Shown piece by piece: positions 27,001 to 45,000 of a stretch of DNA of 64,000 nt. Made by a program: the position numbers. Every line of letters starts with the position of its first letter. Position 1 is the first letter of the stretch. The stretch covers positions 1 through 64,000 of the forward strand of contig CAWCFT010000003.1 of the NCBI GenBank assembly GCA_963794945.1, written 5' to 3'. This stretch comes from Endomicrobiales bacterium. Its GTDB lineage: Bacteria; Elusimicrobiota; Endomicrobiia; Endomicrobiales; CAWCFT01.

Positions 27001-30000
27001 AGTAAATCCTGCACAGGTAGACAGCCGCTTGAACCTTGCGCTGGCATATTATTACAAGGGCATGCTTAAAGAAGCATCCGATCAATTGAAAGAAGTGCTA
27101 AAGATCGACCCGCATAACGACAAGGCGATCGTGATGCTAAAACAAATGACAGAGTGAAGATCTGGAATAACTTTCGGAAGATACAGAGTTTCTGTTAAGC
27201 AAAAAAGAATGTTTTATGAGAAGAAAAGATAAAGAAATAACTGATATAAGCGAGATAGAGCAAATATTGTCCAATGCGCAAGTGATCAGGCTTGGGCTTT
27301 GCGAAGACGGTTTTCCGTATGTCGTGCCGTTATGTTTCGGTTACATAAGGGGCAGGTTATATTTTCACGGAGCAAAAGAAGGTAGAAAACTGAATATACT
27401 TAAGTCAAACCCGAATATTTGTTTCGAGGCTGACATCGATTGCGAAATTGTCAGGTTTGATAAACCGTGCAATTGGGGGATGAGGTTTCGTTCAGTTATA
27501 GGGTTTGGAAAAGCATATAACGTCTTGGACAGGAAAGAAAAAATAGAGGCATTAAACCTTATAATGAAACATTATGGGCCGGGCTCTTGTGAGTTTCCTG
27601 CAAATATGCTTGAAAGAACTGAAGTCATAAGGATTGAGATAGAGAGTCTGTCGGCAAAGATATCGGGTTACGGTAAGTGAAAACAATGCTGATAGATTGA
27701 TGCTAATATAGAAACAGAATTCGAGTCGAGAAGAGTGTAAAATGAAAAAAAGTGAAATAGCGCTTCAGTTATTGAAAGACGGGTACAACTGCGCCCAGGC
27801 AGTCAGCACGGCGTTCAGCGAAGATCTCGGGGTTCATAAGGAAACTACCGCGAGAATGGCGTGCGCGCTGGGGGCGGGTATGTCTCGCTGCGGCGAGGTT
27901 TGCGGAGCGGTTTCCGGGGCGCTTATGATCACTGGGCTCAAACATGGGAGTTCAAAGCCCGAAGACAAGATAGCAAAAGAAAAGTCTTACAAAACAGGAA
28001 AAGAATTTATAAAAATGTTTGAAACGAAGCACGGAACCATTATATGCCGCAAGCTGATAGAAATGGATATCAGTACTCCGGAGGGCCTAGAAGCCGCTCA
28101 CAAGAAAGGCGTCTTCGAAAATATATGTAAAGGCCTGGTAAAAGATGCAGTTGAGATAATCGAGAAAATTATTTAACCAGCATGCCCACTGGTTGGTGAT
28201 AAATGCTCAGAATCGATATTTCATTATTATAATTTTAAAAATCTTATCAAAAGTCATTAAAAGATAAAAAACAGTTATTAAACGGTAAAATATAGCAGTG
28301 GGATTGTTAAATAAACCAAGTGGGACGAAATTGTGGCAATTCATAACATGAAACATGAAAAATAGGTTTACAGAAAAATCAATAAATGTCCATATTTTGC
28401 AAGTAAAATATGTTGACATTTGTTAATAATTTGGTATAATTTGTTTAATTGATGTAGCTATGGCGGGTTACTATATAATAATGCACAAACATCATAACAG
28501 TTTGTTGTCCGGTTTCGCGAACATTGCCTTCTATGTCCCGCATATATTTTCCGGGGTTGTTGGGTATTTAAAGGTACTGAAAATGTGGCGGCAGAAACAC
28601 TTTCCCGTGCGTAACACCGCAAACCAATTAAATACTGTTAGATTGTCGCCTACCAGAACAATTAATTCCGCAAATTATTCTTCACGGAGGCCAATATATG
28701 CCGACTATTTCGAACAATAACCAACAGCTTGTTGTATTTAGTCTGGCGAATGAAGAATACGGTGTTGCGATAACCCAGATCCAGGAGATAATACGCCAGC
28801 CGGATATAACAAGGATACCCGGCATGCCGGCCTTTATCGAGGGCGTGGTCAATTTGCGTGGAAAAATCATTCCAGTTATAGATCTAAGAAAAAGATTTTG
28901 CTTAGAACAAAAAGAAGAGAGTGACAAGACGCGCGTGGTGGTCGCGGATGCTGGCGGGCAAACCATAGGACTTGTTGTCGACAGCGTTTCGGAAGTTGTT
29001 AATCTGCCAACAGACCAGATAGACCCGATACCGCCATCTATAGCTTCGATAGATGCAGAATATCTGTCGGGTGTAGGCAAACTGGAAAAACGGATCGTTA
29101 TACTTCTTGACCTAGTGAAACTGCTTGGTGACCTAGAGAAAGTTGCGATAGATGAACTGGGAAAAAAACAGTGAGACTGATAAAGTAATTTTTCGTAGTG
29201 TTTGAGAGTAAAATATGAGAATTTCGTTCGTTAGAATTTCTACAATAATCTTAAGCTGCATGATTTTCGGCTGTGTTGGCGCTTTTGCCGAAGGAAAAAA
29301 CATATCTATCATTCTTTCTTCTGATTTCGAACCATTTATTCAGTCAGCTAATGGGTTCAAACAATCAGTTGGAGAGAAGAATCTGGGCGTGAACATTACG
29401 GAGTCTAATTTGAAGGCAGCTGACCCTGCAGCAGTAACTTCGCAGGTTGCACAAACAAAACCTGTGATTATTTATGCTGTTGGAACCGATGCGATAAAAC
29501 TCGCAAAAGCTAAATTTAATGATACTCAAATCGTTTTTAGCATGGTACTAAACCCGGCGGAATTCATTGATGCCAATACAACCGGTGTTTCCTTGGCCCT
29601 GCCTCCGGAGCTGAAGATAAGGAACATGAAGAAGATATTGCCGTTCATAAAAAACATAGGCATAATTTATTCGGCAGGTTCCGACCCAGATTACAAAGAG
29701 CTGTCAGCGGAAGCTGACAACCAGGGTCTGAAAATAATCGGAAAAAAGATAAGCACCGATAGCGATTTTCCAGATGCCTTAGCAGCTCTCATCGGCCAGA
29801 TGGACTGTTTCATGATGGTCGCGGATTCGAAAGTGTATTTCAGCCAGTCAGTTAAATACCTTCTTCTTGACAGTTTAAAAAATAAGTTTCCGGTTATAGG
29901 GCTTTCTTCTTTTTATACAAAAGCGGGCGCACTTTTGTCTTTTGATTGCGACTATGAAGATATCGGTAAACAAGCTGGAGATATTGCGGTCAAAATTTTG

Positions 30001-42000: not shown

Positions 42001-45000
42001 AGCGGGACTTATGGATATAACACTCTTCCCGTCCGTGCCGTATCTCGCCGAAGATGTTCTGGGTGCGGTGATCGATACACTGCTGATTGAGATATCGATG
42101 GTTGCTGATAAAGCCTTGCTCATTGATACGCAGATATCGATAGAGAATGAAAACCTTAACGGAAGCTTTCTGGTGTTCCCTGATGAAGAATTCATGAACA
42201 AGATATATGCTAAACTTGGCCTGTTAAGATAATAATCTGTTAAAAAGGAGTGTATTTAAATAATATGGAAACAGTTTGCGTAAATATAGCGGAATATGCG
42301 GTCATCAAAGCTCCGGCGACGATAGAGACTAGGAGCCTTGGCTCGTGTGTGGGCATAATACTGTACGATATTGTATCAAAGATCGGAGGCCTCGCTCACA
42401 TAATGTTGCCAGATTCCAAAAAAGTGAGCATTGGCGGTAAGCCGGGCAAATATGCCGATATCGCCATAGAACTAATGCTAAATAAGATGGTAGAGATGGG
42501 GGCGAACAGGAACAATGTCATCGCAAAAATGGCCGGTGGCGCTTGTATGTTCACAGGAACCAATATTTCCGATTTTATGAATATTGGGTTAAGAAATGTA
42601 ACCGCGATAAAAAGTATCCTTAAAGAATTCAAGATCAACCTTATAGCTGAAGATTGCGGGGGTTCTCATGGACGGACGATAGAATTCCATTCCGATACGG
42701 GAAAACTTGTAATAAAATCTTCTATGGCACCGACAAAAGAGATTTAAAGAGGCCTTATGGCGAAGATACTTATAGCAGATGATTCGGACATGATGAGAAA
42801 GATAGCGAAAATGACCGTAGCGAAGGGCGGCTACGAAGTTGTTGAGGCTGCCAACGGCGCGCAGGCTGTTGAGGTCGCGGTTAAGGAGTTGCCGCAGCTG
42901 ATATTGCTTGATGCAGAAATGCCGGAAATGGATGGCTGGGAAGCAAGCAAGGCCATAAAAGCAAATCCCATTACAGCGAGTATACCTATTCTTATCTGTA
43001 CGGGGCATGATCTGAGCGACGAGGCCGAACTTTTAAAGGAATCCGGCGTGAGCGGGTATATCACTAAACCTTACAATCCATCGCAAATGATAACGAAGAT
43101 CAAGGAAGTGCTCGGACAATAAGGTCAAAGCAAATTTCGACAAGCGTTAACGGAGGTACGATATTATGGTAAAAATTCTGATCATGGACGACGAGCCGGG
43201 CTTAAGAAATATAGTGTACAACATTGTAAAACCGCTCGGTCATCCGGTTTTTACTTCCGAAGACGGTCATCAAGCTCTGGAGGTTGCGAAAAGGGAGAAT
43301 CCTGATATCGCCTTGCTTGATGTCAGAGTGCCGGATATGGACGGGCTGGAAGTACTGGCTGAGCTCAGAAAGATCAATCCGAACATAAAAGCTATAATGC
43401 TCTCTGGTTTTGGGGACGTGGAAAGCGCAGTTTTTGCTCTCAAACAGGGGGCGTTCGATTATATAAGCAAACCATTTAAAGTGGATGACGTAATTAAAAC
43501 GGTCAATAAGGCAATAAGCGCTATGGGTCAAGGTCAAGCAGCAGCTCCAGCAGCAAGTTCTGCTGGTCAGCAGCCAGCACAGGCACCTGCTATGGCCCGC
43601 GACAAGGCCACGAAACCGGAAACTGCCGCAACAAAGCTACAGAACAAGCCGCCCATTGGTCTTATAGCTGGCGGGGCACTGGTCCTCGCAGTGGCGGGCA
43701 TTTTTCTTTTCAAAGGTATTCTGACTAAATCACATGCCGAAAGCTATACGATACCCTACTCAAATCCTATAGGTATGTGCTGGATAAAACCATACCTTTG
43801 GGTAAGCGATTGGGTCGTGGGCAATATCTACCAACATAACAATGACGCGACACTTTCGATAGCTTCTGTTTATAAAACCAATAACACCCAGCCGACAGGC
43901 ATCACTTTTGATGGTGAAGCGTTGTGGACATGCAGTTCGGTAGAGAAAAGGATATACAAACATAGAATGGATAAAAATCTGTCGGTATCAGAGATATTCT
44001 CCACCCCGAACAGCAGCCCGGCTGGATTATACTTTGATGGAGCCAACCTCTGGGTACTAGATACCAACGCGGCGAAGATCTATAAGCATAAAATGGACGA
44101 AACTCTTTCTATTGTGAGCGTTTTCGACAGCCCAGCTGTCAGCCCTTGCGGTATGTTCCGGGACGGCGAGTATTTCTATATAGGCGACTATAAAACTTCA
44201 CGAATTTACAAGGTGTCGGTAAATGATTTTTCCGTAAGAGAAGTGTATTCAATGCCGGATTTTGAGGAAGGTAAGAATAAGCTGGCCAGCATCACATGGG
44301 ACGGTTCCAGCATCTGGGCTACGGCTGATGGTGTTGGAAAGATATTTAAAATACCGTTTAAATCTTTAAAAACAATCAAATTTTAGTTTAGTAAATGCTA
44401 CTATTTATTATACTGATTTTAACAAGATTACACAGATTATAGGCAACAATATACCATAAACTTTGTGCAATAGTTTGGTTCAAAAAGACTAACAAAAAAG
44501 GTCTTGACAAATAACAGGATCTGTGTTATATAGTTAGTGGAAACAAGAAGGCTGTCTGAAAGTTAACGACAATAGCAAACTCCGGGAAACCGGAGGACGC
44601 AAAGCCACGGGGCTAAAGATAGGGGGCTATCAACGCCAGCCGGGTTACCGAAAAGACAGCTGCAAGACGGGTCTCAAAACGTTATTTGTTTGACATTAAA
44701 TCAGCAATACAAGTCCCCCTATCTTAAGCTACCGGGCATCACGAAAGTGAGCGGTAGTTTTTATTTTTGATGTGAGATCGCCCCCGATTTCACGCAAAGT
44801 TCTTTAAAAGAAGTTCCGATAAAGGCAAACTCCGGGAAACCGGAGGACGCAAAGCCACGGGCCTAAAAGGCGGAGTTGATCAGCCGCTTCAAGGTAGCCG
44901 GGTTACCGAAGACTAAGCCGTTTTCAAGTTCCGCGCGTATCGCGGGATGAGAGCCCCCAAACGGCTGATAAAGAGCAAGGGTTAACGCGATTTATGACCC

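Follow-up and report, generated by a model that had tools for sequence, protein, structure and literature searches.

What does a complete chemosensory system steer in a non-flagellated bacterium? The question is raised by a gene cluster in the first 64,000 nucleotides (the window, in which all positions below are counted) of contig CAWCFT010000003.1 of an Endomicrobiales bacterium (phylum Elusimicrobiota; assembly GCA_963794945.1, here G000). The occurrence of che genes in flagellum-less Elusimicrobiota has already been published at a coarse level: non-flagellated members have many motAB/fliG homologues besides che genes, MCPs and type IV pilus genes, and no flagellar structural genes, and twitching or gliding has been suggested (bioRxiv 10.1101/2022.07.08.499144). 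In its accessible parts, that report is a KEGG-level inventory without operon anatomy, the CheB fusion, the FtsA-like ATPase, the FliF-FliG fusion or the riboswitch link described below. A first-pass annotation had described the present cluster as a chemosensory system of unusual build; its observations were partly confirmed and its interpretation was partly supported. The reading preferred here, held at a little under even chances, is that a working F1-derived che system steers a non-flagellar surface machine, the output being suggested by gene neighbourhood among related genomes.

Organization of the che operon

The che operon consists of 15 genes in one direction (28698-44386) with intergenic gaps of -4 to 79 nt, and 642 nt separate it from the following operon. 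Pfam and NCBIfam searches bore out the gene content and order annotated earlier, as follows (all on the forward strand).

28413..28440, +, candidate sigma-70-type promoter with an extended -10 element (12/12 match)
28698..29174, +, CheW (PF01584, E 1e-43)
29215..30138, +, periplasmic solute-binding protein 1 (ABC_sub_bind, PF04392)
30218..31135, +, periplasmic solute-binding protein 2 (ABC_sub_bind, PF04392)
31162..33127, +, transmembrane MCP with a Cache-like domain, HAMP and signalling domain; frameshift near 32573
33200..34060, +, CheR methyltransferase (PF01739, E 6e-52)
34103..34474, +, CheY, phosphoacceptor intact (top NCBIfam match CheY_Halo)
34480..36093, +, CheB (receiver and methylesterase) with a C-terminal pseudo-H-NOX domain, 537 aa
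35518-36090, +, the pseudo-H-NOX domain of CheB, residues about 347-537
36141..37937, +, CheA: Hpt, low-complexity linker, dimerisation, HATPase and CheW domains
37970..38737, +, receiver-PAS protein (REC-PAS), overlapping the following gene by 4 nt
38734..40960, +, FtsA/PilM-fold actin-like ATPase with a ThiS/TGS-like tail; frameshift near 40600
40969..41589, +, CheC1, with the first of its two E-x2-N sites broken and the other intact
41597..42232, +, CheC2, with two intact E-x2-N sites
42250..42747, +, CheD (PF03975, E 7e-36)
42757..43122, +, REC2, a single-domain receiver with intact phosphoacceptor
43166..44386, +, REC-TM-propeller: receiver, one predicted TM helix (161-179) and beta-propeller-like domain

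The promoter listed is the sole 12/12 site in a sigma-70 scan that gave 35 sites against 31.9 in shuffles, and both of its hexamers are conserved in genome G006, where the pair of solute-binding proteins is present as well. CheA is the single CheA of the genome, and the stand-alone CheW is likewise the only one (a single tblastn match). By sequence the che core is complete, with phosphorylation and catalytic motifs intact, and its order is kept in G003, G005, G006 and G013, as had been claimed. In the assembly, frameshifts interrupt both the MCP and the FtsA-like gene and also four genes further downstream.

These six frameshifted genes within 30 kb, together with replacement of the catalytic Asp in 4/15 fused CheBs (G003, G005, G013 and P0013), might be taken for real pseudogenisation of a decaying relic of flagellar chemotaxis. 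This is barely credible, as all six genes are single ORFs in G006 (653 aa for the MCP and 743 aa for the FtsA-like protein), unrelated loci of the assembly are frameshifted too, and different families have conserved the operon, at 40-80% identity and with its motifs intact. Nor does its CheA group with the CheAs of flagellated relatives.

The CheA clade and its receptors

F1-class systems, found in Bacillota, Thermotoga and archaea, combine CheA, CheW, CheY, CheR and CheB with CheC and CheD, as here. The latter two are the auxiliary proteins of the F1 class in the scheme of Wuichet and Zhulin (PMC10746217), and two CheC and one CheD make up this auxiliary set in the operon. The top NCBIfam matches are CheA_Halo, CheY_Halo, CheC_Thtogales and CheD_Thtga, all below cut-off. 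In a quick tree, in which the F1 class labels of the reference CheAs were assumed, 16 CheAs from operons with the FtsA-like ATPase and those of G119, G143 and G187 form one clade (SH-aLRT 97), which nests in a Bacillota group (94); flagellated Elusimicrobiota have CheAs that fall elsewhere. By sequence, the clade is common to Elusimicrobiota, Omnitrophota and Methanolobus, and it appears to be F1-related. The clade marked by the ATPase, which the first-pass annotation had missed, spans several phyla.

Compared with the F1 class, the system has as extras the FtsA-like ATPase, REC-PAS, the CheB tail and REC-TM-propeller, the CheA linker gave no match to a P2 domain, and FlhA, FliM and FliN were not found. 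The receptors also differ. All eight aligned Elusimicrobiota MCPs have a 21-aa gap (three heptads) per arm relative to four MCPs of Bacillota and Omnitrophota, and the MCP of the operon described here likewise has arms 21 aa shorter than those of F1-type receptors; the residues after the tip number 133 in the Elusimicrobiota MCPs, 154-159 in the four others and about 153 in TM1143, a 44H receptor. By length, the eight MCPs do not fit the 44H receptors cognate to F1 systems. A block of HdrA-Mvh hydrogenase genes followed by an MCP is seen in G005 and G013, in keeping with the earlier claim for two relatives, and at C1:244771 in the present genome.

A pseudo-H-NOX domain on CheB

The methylesterase Ser, His and Asp motifs of CheB are intact in this genome. 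Its tail matches PF07700 at residues 353-459 (E 1.9e-7, 31.6 bits, cut-off 25.5), and the structural model (pLDDT 94.2) finds H-NOX domains in Foldseek (TM 0.69, E 7e-8) and aligns with them in VIA over 169-170 residues at 2.7-2.9 A (Z 15.5), covering the full two-subdomain fold. The H-NOX-fold domain reported earlier thus stands as a fold, without the heme-binding residues. When the proximal His of helix F was judged by alignment columns, no column held His in more than 4/11 homologues, in agreement with the earlier remark that this His is not evident; two of these 11 sequences have no His in the domain at all, and the YxSxR propionate-binding motif is found in 0/11. The tail is therefore called a pseudo-H-NOX domain. 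It shares its two-subdomain fold with H-NOX gas sensors and with a domain of soluble guanylate cyclase alpha that holds no heme and is likewise called 'pseudo-H-NOX' (PMC8196705), and differs from the gas sensors in lacking both the proximal His and YxSxR and in being fused to CheB. Very probably it binds no heme via the canonical site.

A true gas or redox sensor, using heme or Cys/metal and making adaptation dependent on NO, O2 or redox state, would agree with the H-NOX proteins as top structural matches, with a PF07700 score above cut-off, with two Cys, at positions 87 and 186 of the domain, kept in 9/11 tails, with G005 and G013 having hydrogenase genes inside the cluster, and with the reported heme-independent redox sensing by a Vibrio H-NOX. 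This is nevertheless very unlikely, because a His and a YRSxxR-type motif can be seen in the stand-alone HNOB protein of G116 but neither a conserved His nor YxSxR in the tail, both Cys are absent in G005 and G013, and the fold is common to non-heme proteins (VirS, Z 11.5; BcsD, 10.5; TRAPP, 9.9). A heme-less interaction or small-ligand module that tunes or tethers CheB is the most likely role. The nearest Atlas clusters are Myxococcota hypothetical proteins of ~190 aa and a group in which 21% of the members carry V4R, and a literature search found no CheB-H-NOX fusion architecture. The fusion also occurs in G004. It had been called absent in G003, which is incorrect: the core operon of G003 has an unfused CheB of 340 aa, but a fused CheB of 540 aa (48% identity) lies at C24:197839, ~90 kb away.

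An FtsA-like ATPase with a beta-module tail

FtsA ends in a short membrane helix and is encoded beside ftsZ. The ATPase of the che operon shares the actin fold of FtsA (TIGR01174; PDB 7q6d, 1e4f) and PilM (2ych, 5eou), has che genes rather than ftsZ as neighbours, and carries a ThiS/TGS-like tail of ~330 aa, predicted by the model to consist of beta modules, in place of the membrane-binding helix. In VIA, the model of the G006 protein matches FtsA with Z 40.5 and PilM with 32.8; the actin fold comprises residues 1-407 (TMt 0.85 to FtsA), and the phosphate-1, connect-1, phosphate-2 and adenosine motifs are intact. TIGR01174 scores 144.5 bits on a frameshifted 651-aa piece covering the whole actin domain, below the cut-off of 175.85. 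Of the ubiquitin-like repeats claimed earlier, what stands is a weak match to ThiS/TGS profiles (for ThiS, E 1.9e-4 with the tail encoded in the window, 22.4 bits with a cut-off of 22.5; 1.7e-6 in G006; 3e-10 in P0020). The match is of the beta-grasp type seen in ThiS, MoaD and ubiquitin-type modifiers, but a free C-terminal Gly-Gly occurs in 0/24 family members. Other FtsA/MreB-like matches in the genome lie at C4:117044 and C10:21015.

The gene is not lineage-specific. Its family has more than 2,600 proteins, and it lies inside che operons of Omnitrophota and of Methanolobus, where it occurs alongside archaella, and stands alone in Bacillota (0/71 loci within a che cluster). CheA is present in 43/45 Bacillota carriers against a background of 86/101 (p 0.09). 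At three loci the gene lies between minE and rodA. Nine carriers were counted among 201 genomes of the phylum, and six in the order. A homologous operon in G119 lacks the ATPase, REC-PAS and one CheC. Because it coexists with archaella in Methanolobus and is absent from the G119 operon, the ATPase is not tied to one motor, and it seems to be an optional accessory of the che system. Its likeliest role, proposed tentatively, is to polymerise into a scaffold by which, together with one CheC paralogue, the array is positioned or organised, rather than to serve as the motor adaptor.

Flagellar genes

F1 systems act through FliM and FliN on a flagellum, or else on an archaellum, and searches of the carriers do not support a flagellar output of this kind. 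FlhA was found in none of G000, G003, G005 and G006, in 0/9 carriers among the 201 phylum genomes, as claimed earlier for fewer of them, and in 0/12 Elusimicrobiota members of the CheA clade; FliM was found in 0/5 carriers, and a FliN domain was not found in G000. Absences in G000 carry little weight since the genome is 86% complete, against 100% for G005 and 97% for G003. FlhA occurs in 5/201 phylum genomes, four of these five being among the eight other CheA-bearing genomes (Fisher p 0.03, with kin not independent). The system does occur in non-flagellated relatives, but the order is not wholly flagellum-less, since one genome with FlhA, G014, belongs to it. FliG, reported for five carriers, is represented by FliG_C in all six of the order, and also in order genomes without a CheA match (G002, G008, G011 and G012).

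Candidate outputs

Downstream of the che operon lie the following features.

44564-44652 and 44815-44911, +, two tandem c-di-GMP-I riboswitches (Rfam RF01051, 83.9 bits; RF03167, 72.1 bits)
45029..62424, +, candidate output operon encoding a FlgD_ig protein, PorV-TPR, a FliF-FliG fusion and others
47049-48969, +, FliF_C-FliG_M-FliG_C-TPR fusion, frameshifted

This operon further encodes giant coiled coils, a LysM-like protein and a coiled-coil-TM-propeller, and its barrel belongs to the PorV/PorQ family known from type IX secretion (NF033709, 140 bits, cut-off 90). PorV modules adjoin che genes in 6/7 genomes in three arrangements, against a background in which 22 PorV-like loci, with about 6 kb around each, take up 9.6% of G000. 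The module is of the FliF-FliG type in G000, G006 and G102 and of an fn3/kinase type in G003, G005 and G074. In G102, riboswitch, PorV, FliFG, coiled coil, REC and cheW follow one another on the same strand, no gap exceeding 138 nt, and run directly into cheR-cheY-cheB-cheA. Both module types have their own TM-propeller paralogue, and the closest orthologue (63%) of the last che gene ends an fn3 module in G008, which has no CheA match; the propeller family also occurs in G011, G012, G016 and G116. The riboswitches head both module types (they were also found at G006, G005 and G102, and not at the G074 junction). The position directly upstream of PorV operons holds as an adjacency, reinforced by the shared REC-TM-propeller, but here the PorV/FliF-FliG operon begins 642 nt away and, with two tandem riboswitches in front, is a separately regulated unit. 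No PorV match was seen near the che operon in G165 (upstream side visible) or G119, and FliG_C and propeller were found in 0/8 non-Elusimicrobiota genomes with an ATPase-type che operon, which means that such an output cannot hold for the CheA clade as a whole. Judged by gene neighbourhood, the link to PorV is stronger than first described, and the PorV-linked, mostly riboswitch-led envelope modules are the best candidate for the output. A precedent is PorX of Bacteroidota, whose CheY-like domain is described as acting on the T9SS motor, part of a PorV-associated envelope machine (PMC5005315, PMC10951265), although PorX is not CheA-driven and a FliF-FliG fusion sets the present machine apart.

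The main rival output is the type IV pilus. The che system might steer twitching, which on this view is probably ancestral in the CheA clade; the FtsA/PilM-fold ATPase would link CheY-P with the pilus platform, and surface genes would have clustered secondarily, giving the PorV adjacency. Archaella, present in the Methanolobus carriers, are type IV filaments. Each of five tested carriers has 8-15 matches to PF00437 (type IV pilus/T2SS ATPase), a secretin lies just 5' of the operon in L055, the ATPase model resembles PilM, and Omnitrophota carriers lack FlhA and FliG. Type-4a pili are described as commonly encoded by Omnitrophota (PMC10066038), and twitching has been proposed for free-living Elusimicrobiota (bioRxiv 2022.07.08.499144). 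This rival is doubtful, however, since the annotated ORFs of Elusimicrobiota loci include no pilus gene in or beside the operon, the ATPase is nearer to FtsA than to PilM, dispensable in G119 and alone in Bacillota, and the terminal gene of the operon belongs to PorV modules.

Alternatively, the output might be other than motility, REC-PAS and REC2 relaying to c-di-GMP enzymes or gene regulation with an indirect effect on the riboswitch-led surface operons. The four receivers besides CheB, the c-di-GMP-I riboswitches before both module types and a stand-alone Hpt in G003 would suit such a relay, which is improbable all the same: by Pfam and NCBIfam, none of the operon's receivers carries an output domain of enzymatic or DNA-binding type, and systems for fast taxis are those that typically have CheC, CheD, CheR and CheB in full.

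A possible signalling route

For a surface machine as the output, the route may be sketched by analogy with known F1 systems. Solute-binding proteins, of which the first is likely to give the MCP an indirect ligand input, and a hydrogenase-linked soluble receptor would feed the MCP-CheW-CheA array, which CheR/CheB and CheC/CheD would adapt. CheA-P would then phosphorylate CheY, REC-PAS, REC2 and the membrane-anchored receiver-propeller. The last, a candidate inside-out output protein, would relay the signal through the inner membrane to envelope modules linked to PorV/LysM. Of these modules, one has a FliF-FliG rotor fusion and the other has fn3 surface proteins together with a kinase of its own; they may expose large surface proteins or set them in motion, with c-di-GMP as a further control.

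More speculatively, and rather unlikely as a whole, the operon may represent an undescribed che class marked by an actin-like ATPase, present in Elusimicrobiota, Omnitrophota and methanogenic archaea and rewired in Elusimicrobiota, where CheA, lacking FliM and FliN as targets downstream, would phosphorylate an inner-membrane-spanning receiver. Acting from the periplasm, this receiver would switch a FliF-FliG/MotAB rotor that works without a flagellum, or else the sister PorV module. If so, a new motor would let these bacteria move over surfaces in a directed way, their receptors being shortened and their CheB regulated by a pseudo-H-NOX domain.

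Structure and integrity of the operon

The chemosensory operon at 28698–44386 is real, conserved and unusually built: it is an F1-like variant with three undescribed parts, and its output is probably non-flagellar. Its 15 genes run in one direction with intergenic gaps of -4 to 79 nt, and the putative promoter ahead of them is kept in G006, a relative from the same order.

28413–28440, sigma-70 site ahead of the operon (12/12 match)

By Pfam and NCBIfam, the genes encode CheW, two solute-binding proteins, an MCP, CheR, CheY, a 537-aa CheB with a PF07700 match and CheA, followed by REC-PAS, an FtsA-like protein (the ATPase), two CheC, CheD and two further receivers, the first on its own and the second joined to one TM helix and a propeller-like domain. 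The CheA, CheW and CheD are the only copies in this genome (G000, 86% complete). The MCP gene, the ATPase gene and four downstream genes are split by frameshifts; since all six are intact single ORFs in G006, an assembly error is likely. Contigs of the sequencing run X1 are scattered pieces of the region, and among those shown none bridges a frameshift. The catalytic triad of CheB consists of Ser, His and Asp, and these motifs are intact in the CheB of the operon, as are the phosphoacceptor motifs in all five receivers; that the operon is a relic is extremely improbable. Elsewhere in the window, 8001–12000 has a very strong GC skew (0.53–0.59) and AT skew (0.33–0.40).

Relationship to the F1 class

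The F1 class is defined by CheC and CheD, and its receptors are 44H, as stated in PMC10746217. In a CheA tree of 38 rows, 16 CheAs of ATPase operons and three from ATPase-less non-flagellated Elusimicrobiota form one clade (SH-aLRT 97), which nests in a Bacillota group (94), apart from the CheAs of flagellated Elusimicrobiota. The tree comes from a quick search with no bootstrap and leaves out G136, from which no segment was recovered, and L062, a locus without CheA. All eight aligned Elusimicrobiota receptors show a symmetric gap of 21 residues (three heptads) in both signalling arms relative to four Bacillota or Omnitrophota receptors; the receptor of G165 has 7 residues more per arm.

L010, L014, L018, L019, L117, L118 and L120, MCPs with the symmetric three-heptad deletion in the alignment

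If the comparison receptors are 44H, those of Elusimicrobiota would be 38 heptads in length. The system appears, as judged from sequence, to be F1-like in working, yet it departs from F1 in two membership features. What stands out is the CheA/ATPase clade spanning several phyla, together with the operon's link to envelope modules.

CheB with an H-NOX-fold tail

Full-length CheB carrying the C-terminal tail is found in 5 of the 60 other genomes of the order surveyed (G003, G004, G005, G006 and G013); 46 of the 60 are one family with no match. The first-pass annotation described the fusion as absent in G003; the CheB of the core operon there is unfused, but a 540-aa fusion is present at a second locus with CheW, an MCP, CheR and a lone Hpt. 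This Hpt (L013:17365–17775, 136 aa) stands after the fused CheB and shares 51% identity with domain P1 of CheA. CheB is unfused in the homologous operons of G074, G102 and G119, and therefore the fusion is confined to this order within the sample. Relatives are scarce: seven proteins were found in one search and nine among 1.8 billion representatives, together with three small stand-alone forms; P0014 and P0016, database proteins with multi-stretch matches, are left out of the comparison.

The model of the tail (pLDDT 94.2) best matches H-NOX proteins (TM 0.69; Z 15.5), followed by VirS, BcsD, TRAPP and V4R proteins, and the tail profile finds no PDB sequence below E 0.1. According to PMC8196705, heme binding in H-NOX requires the proximal His and YxSxR, while the sGC alpha domain lacks one or the other feature by species and binds no heme. 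Aligning the tail with the H-NOX protein of G116 by MAFFT or hhalign yields no usable register, and heme-ligand positions are accordingly judged by column content. In an alignment of 11 tails, His occupies any one column in at most four sequences, two tails lack it altogether, and YxSxR occurs in none; invariance is limited to V352, K353, G354, F461, W502, D524, G527 and W536. The tail is read as a probable pseudo-H-NOX. A gas-sensing function is unlikely, and that true gas sensing defines the system is highly improbable.

The catalytic Asp is lost in 4 of 15 fused CheBs (G003, G005, G013 and P0013) that keep the tail, which hints at a possible non-catalytic role for the fusion. Ser or Tyr replaces it in L013:17837–19459 (G003), L005 (G005), L019:13303–14931 (G013) and P0013; in G005 and G013 this is the sole CheB match at E 1e-20. 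A stand-alone HNOB protein of G116 (L126:1495–2082) has His and a YRSxxR-type motif, and is the only non-CheB PF07700 match among 201 genomes of the phylum. An orphan CheB-like protein of 334 aa is conserved in G000 (contig C13, L021:12586–13590) and G006 (L023:12911–13915), with 2-oxoacid:ferredoxin oxidoreductase genes on one side and a holin-like gene on the other; the catalytic motif patterns are unmatched in it.

FtsA-like ATPase

The model of the intact ATPase of G006 comprises an FtsA-type actin domain at residues 1–407 (Z 40.5 to FtsA, 32.8 to PilM) and a tail of β modules with weak ThiS/TGS matches; terminal Gly-Gly occurs in none of 24 family members. The family has at least 2,683 proteins at E ≤ 1e-60, and no published description of it was found. 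From 580 confirmed GTDB loci 80 were kept. Nine of them lie in che clusters: four belong to Omnitrophota and two to Methanolobus, and one each comes from a Planctomycetales MAG, an unclassified bacterium and an Elusimicrobiota genome. The remaining 71, of which 70 are from Bacillota and one has no label, all lie outside che clusters, and four have CheR alone nearby. One branch of the ATPase tree (SH-aLRT 95) splits 15 che-embedded copies from those 71, although label and taxonomy coincide; the tree, a quick search with no bootstrap, excludes L103, the frameshifted copy from the window and any piece shorter than 550 aa.

Within Elusimicrobiota, the ATPase is present in 9 of 201 genomes, all nine with CheA (17/201 overall) and none with FlhA (5/201 in the phylum). 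Restriction of the ATPase to genomes with CheA was set aside as uninformative for Bacillota, where CheA is found in 43/45 carriers and 86/101 background genomes, which are not distinguishable. Methanolobus carriers encode a single CheA along with archaellins, and in G119 the operon persists but lacks the ATPase, REC-PAS and one of the CheC. These cases make the ATPase an optional accessory that is not bound to one motor. It may serve in scaffolding or positioning. In a complex prediction with CheA (P3–P5) and CheC1, the G006 tail scored 0.01 (mark 0.32), a result that is weighed neither for nor against an interaction.

Several other arrangements accompany the family. A shorter ATPase (~590 aa) lies in a minD-minE-ATPase-rodA run of Bacillota (L026:6807–10937, also L042 and L070), and a gene for ComFB comes after that for the ATPase in three operons of Omnitrophota (L038:10111–10425, also L031 and L046). 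The Methanolobus operon L037:7366–14651 has four CheC-like genes; in the one that separates cheA from the ATPase gene, no E-x2-N pattern is matched. Directly 3' of the ATPase of G165, a 370-aa protein (L120:3515–4627) fuses a CheC-like N-terminal part, with one E-x2-N by eye, to CheD.

Input

Ahead of the MCP gene, both the window and G006 have a pair of solute-binding genes. In G005 and G013, receptor genes flank an HdrA-MvhDGA-HycI block, after which come a receptor of 361–363 aa without TM helices and then cheR; on contig C1 of G000 such a block lies ahead of a frameshifted receptor. This adjacency suggests that the input may be redox- or hydrogen-linked.

Output

Known outputs of chemotaxis systems are type IV pili, enzymes, an archaellar adaptor and the flagellar switch (FliM/FliN). 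FlhA, FliM and FliN have no match in the carrier genomes searched, and two output candidates are left: pilus ATPases, and envelope modules that carry PorV-like barrels, together with MotA-like genes at other loci. Type IV pili, for which each of five carriers has 8–15 pilus ATPase matches, are rather unlikely to be the output, and indirect regulation is quite improbable. Two N-methyl pilin-like genes (window 20373–22236) lie ~7 kb upstream of the operon, and a PF00437 ATPase of PilT-like size (L125:1860–2810) just past the window end.

The modules are of two types, PorV-TPR/FliF-FliG/coiled coils/LysM/TM-propeller and fn3 giant/PorV-LysM/kinase/REC-TM-propeller. Both are usually headed by c-di-GMP-I riboswitches, often in tandem, of which each genome has only 2–5.

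Window 44564–44911, c-di-GMP-I riboswitches
L011:2800–3125 (G006), c-di-GMP-I riboswitches
L017:10105–10194 (G005), c-di-GMP-I riboswitch
L119:9608–9686 (G102), c-di-GMP-I riboswitch
L124:1453–1543 (G000), c-di-GMP-I riboswitch

The che genes adjoin a module in six of seven judgeable genomes (G000, G006, G102; G003, G005, G074) against a background of 9.6%, the exception being G165 with one side visible; G004 and G013 stop at contig edges. PorV adjacency was accepted as evidence only once weighed against 22 PorV-like loci. G102 belongs to another class; there, a riboswitch-led FliF-FliG operon runs on directly into the che genes. The final gene of the chemosensory operon is paralogous to the propeller proteins that the modules themselves encode; in the CheA-less G008, its closest orthologue ends the fn3 module. 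Tentatively, the envelope modules may well be the output, although the genomes showing adjacency are kin, FliG_C and the propeller are each found in 0/8 carriers outside the phylum, and both also occur without CheA.

CheC as a FliM substitute on FliG, prompted by EPPQ in FliG_M of G006, was rejected: GGxG, the FliM motif, was not seen by eye in either CheC, and G102 has no EPPQ match. FliG_C is found in 12 of 61 order genomes. Three FliG_C loci of G000 (window 47049–48969, C4:13899 and C16:8415) each lie beside PorV-like and FlgD_ig-tailed genes. A soluble kinase (L124:8865–10256, L014:8051–9430, L116:5219–6556) combines HATPase with an N-terminal coiled coil and gives no HisKA match at the thresholds used; the same N-terminal part opens the 683-aa TM-propeller protein encoded in the FliF-FliG operon. 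In G003 (L016:1–13001), an open frame close to the core che locus exceeds 4,300 codons.

Significance

In flagellum-less free-living Elusimicrobiota, che, MCP, pilus, motAB and fliG genes have been noted and twitching or gliding suggested, as given in 10.1101/2022.07.08.499144. No published CheB–H-NOX fusion, che-operon FtsA-like protein or Elusimicrobiota FliF-FliG fusion was found in the literature searched; the supplements of two Elusimicrobiota preprints could list them, and term searches returned no mention in the searchable text of bioRxiv 765248, PMC5847659, PMC10542144 and PMC10066038. The CheB tail offers a natural example of the H-NOX fold reused without heme ligands. Carriers of the ATPase include cultured Methanolobus, Clostridium and Bacillus species, in which its role is testable now. 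An F1-related pathway persists here without a detected flagellar switch, beside the core of a flagellar rotor that has been taken over by a different machine. If the two are linked, this would be a new connection from sensing to motor and a testable basis for the motility of free-living Elusimicrobiota.
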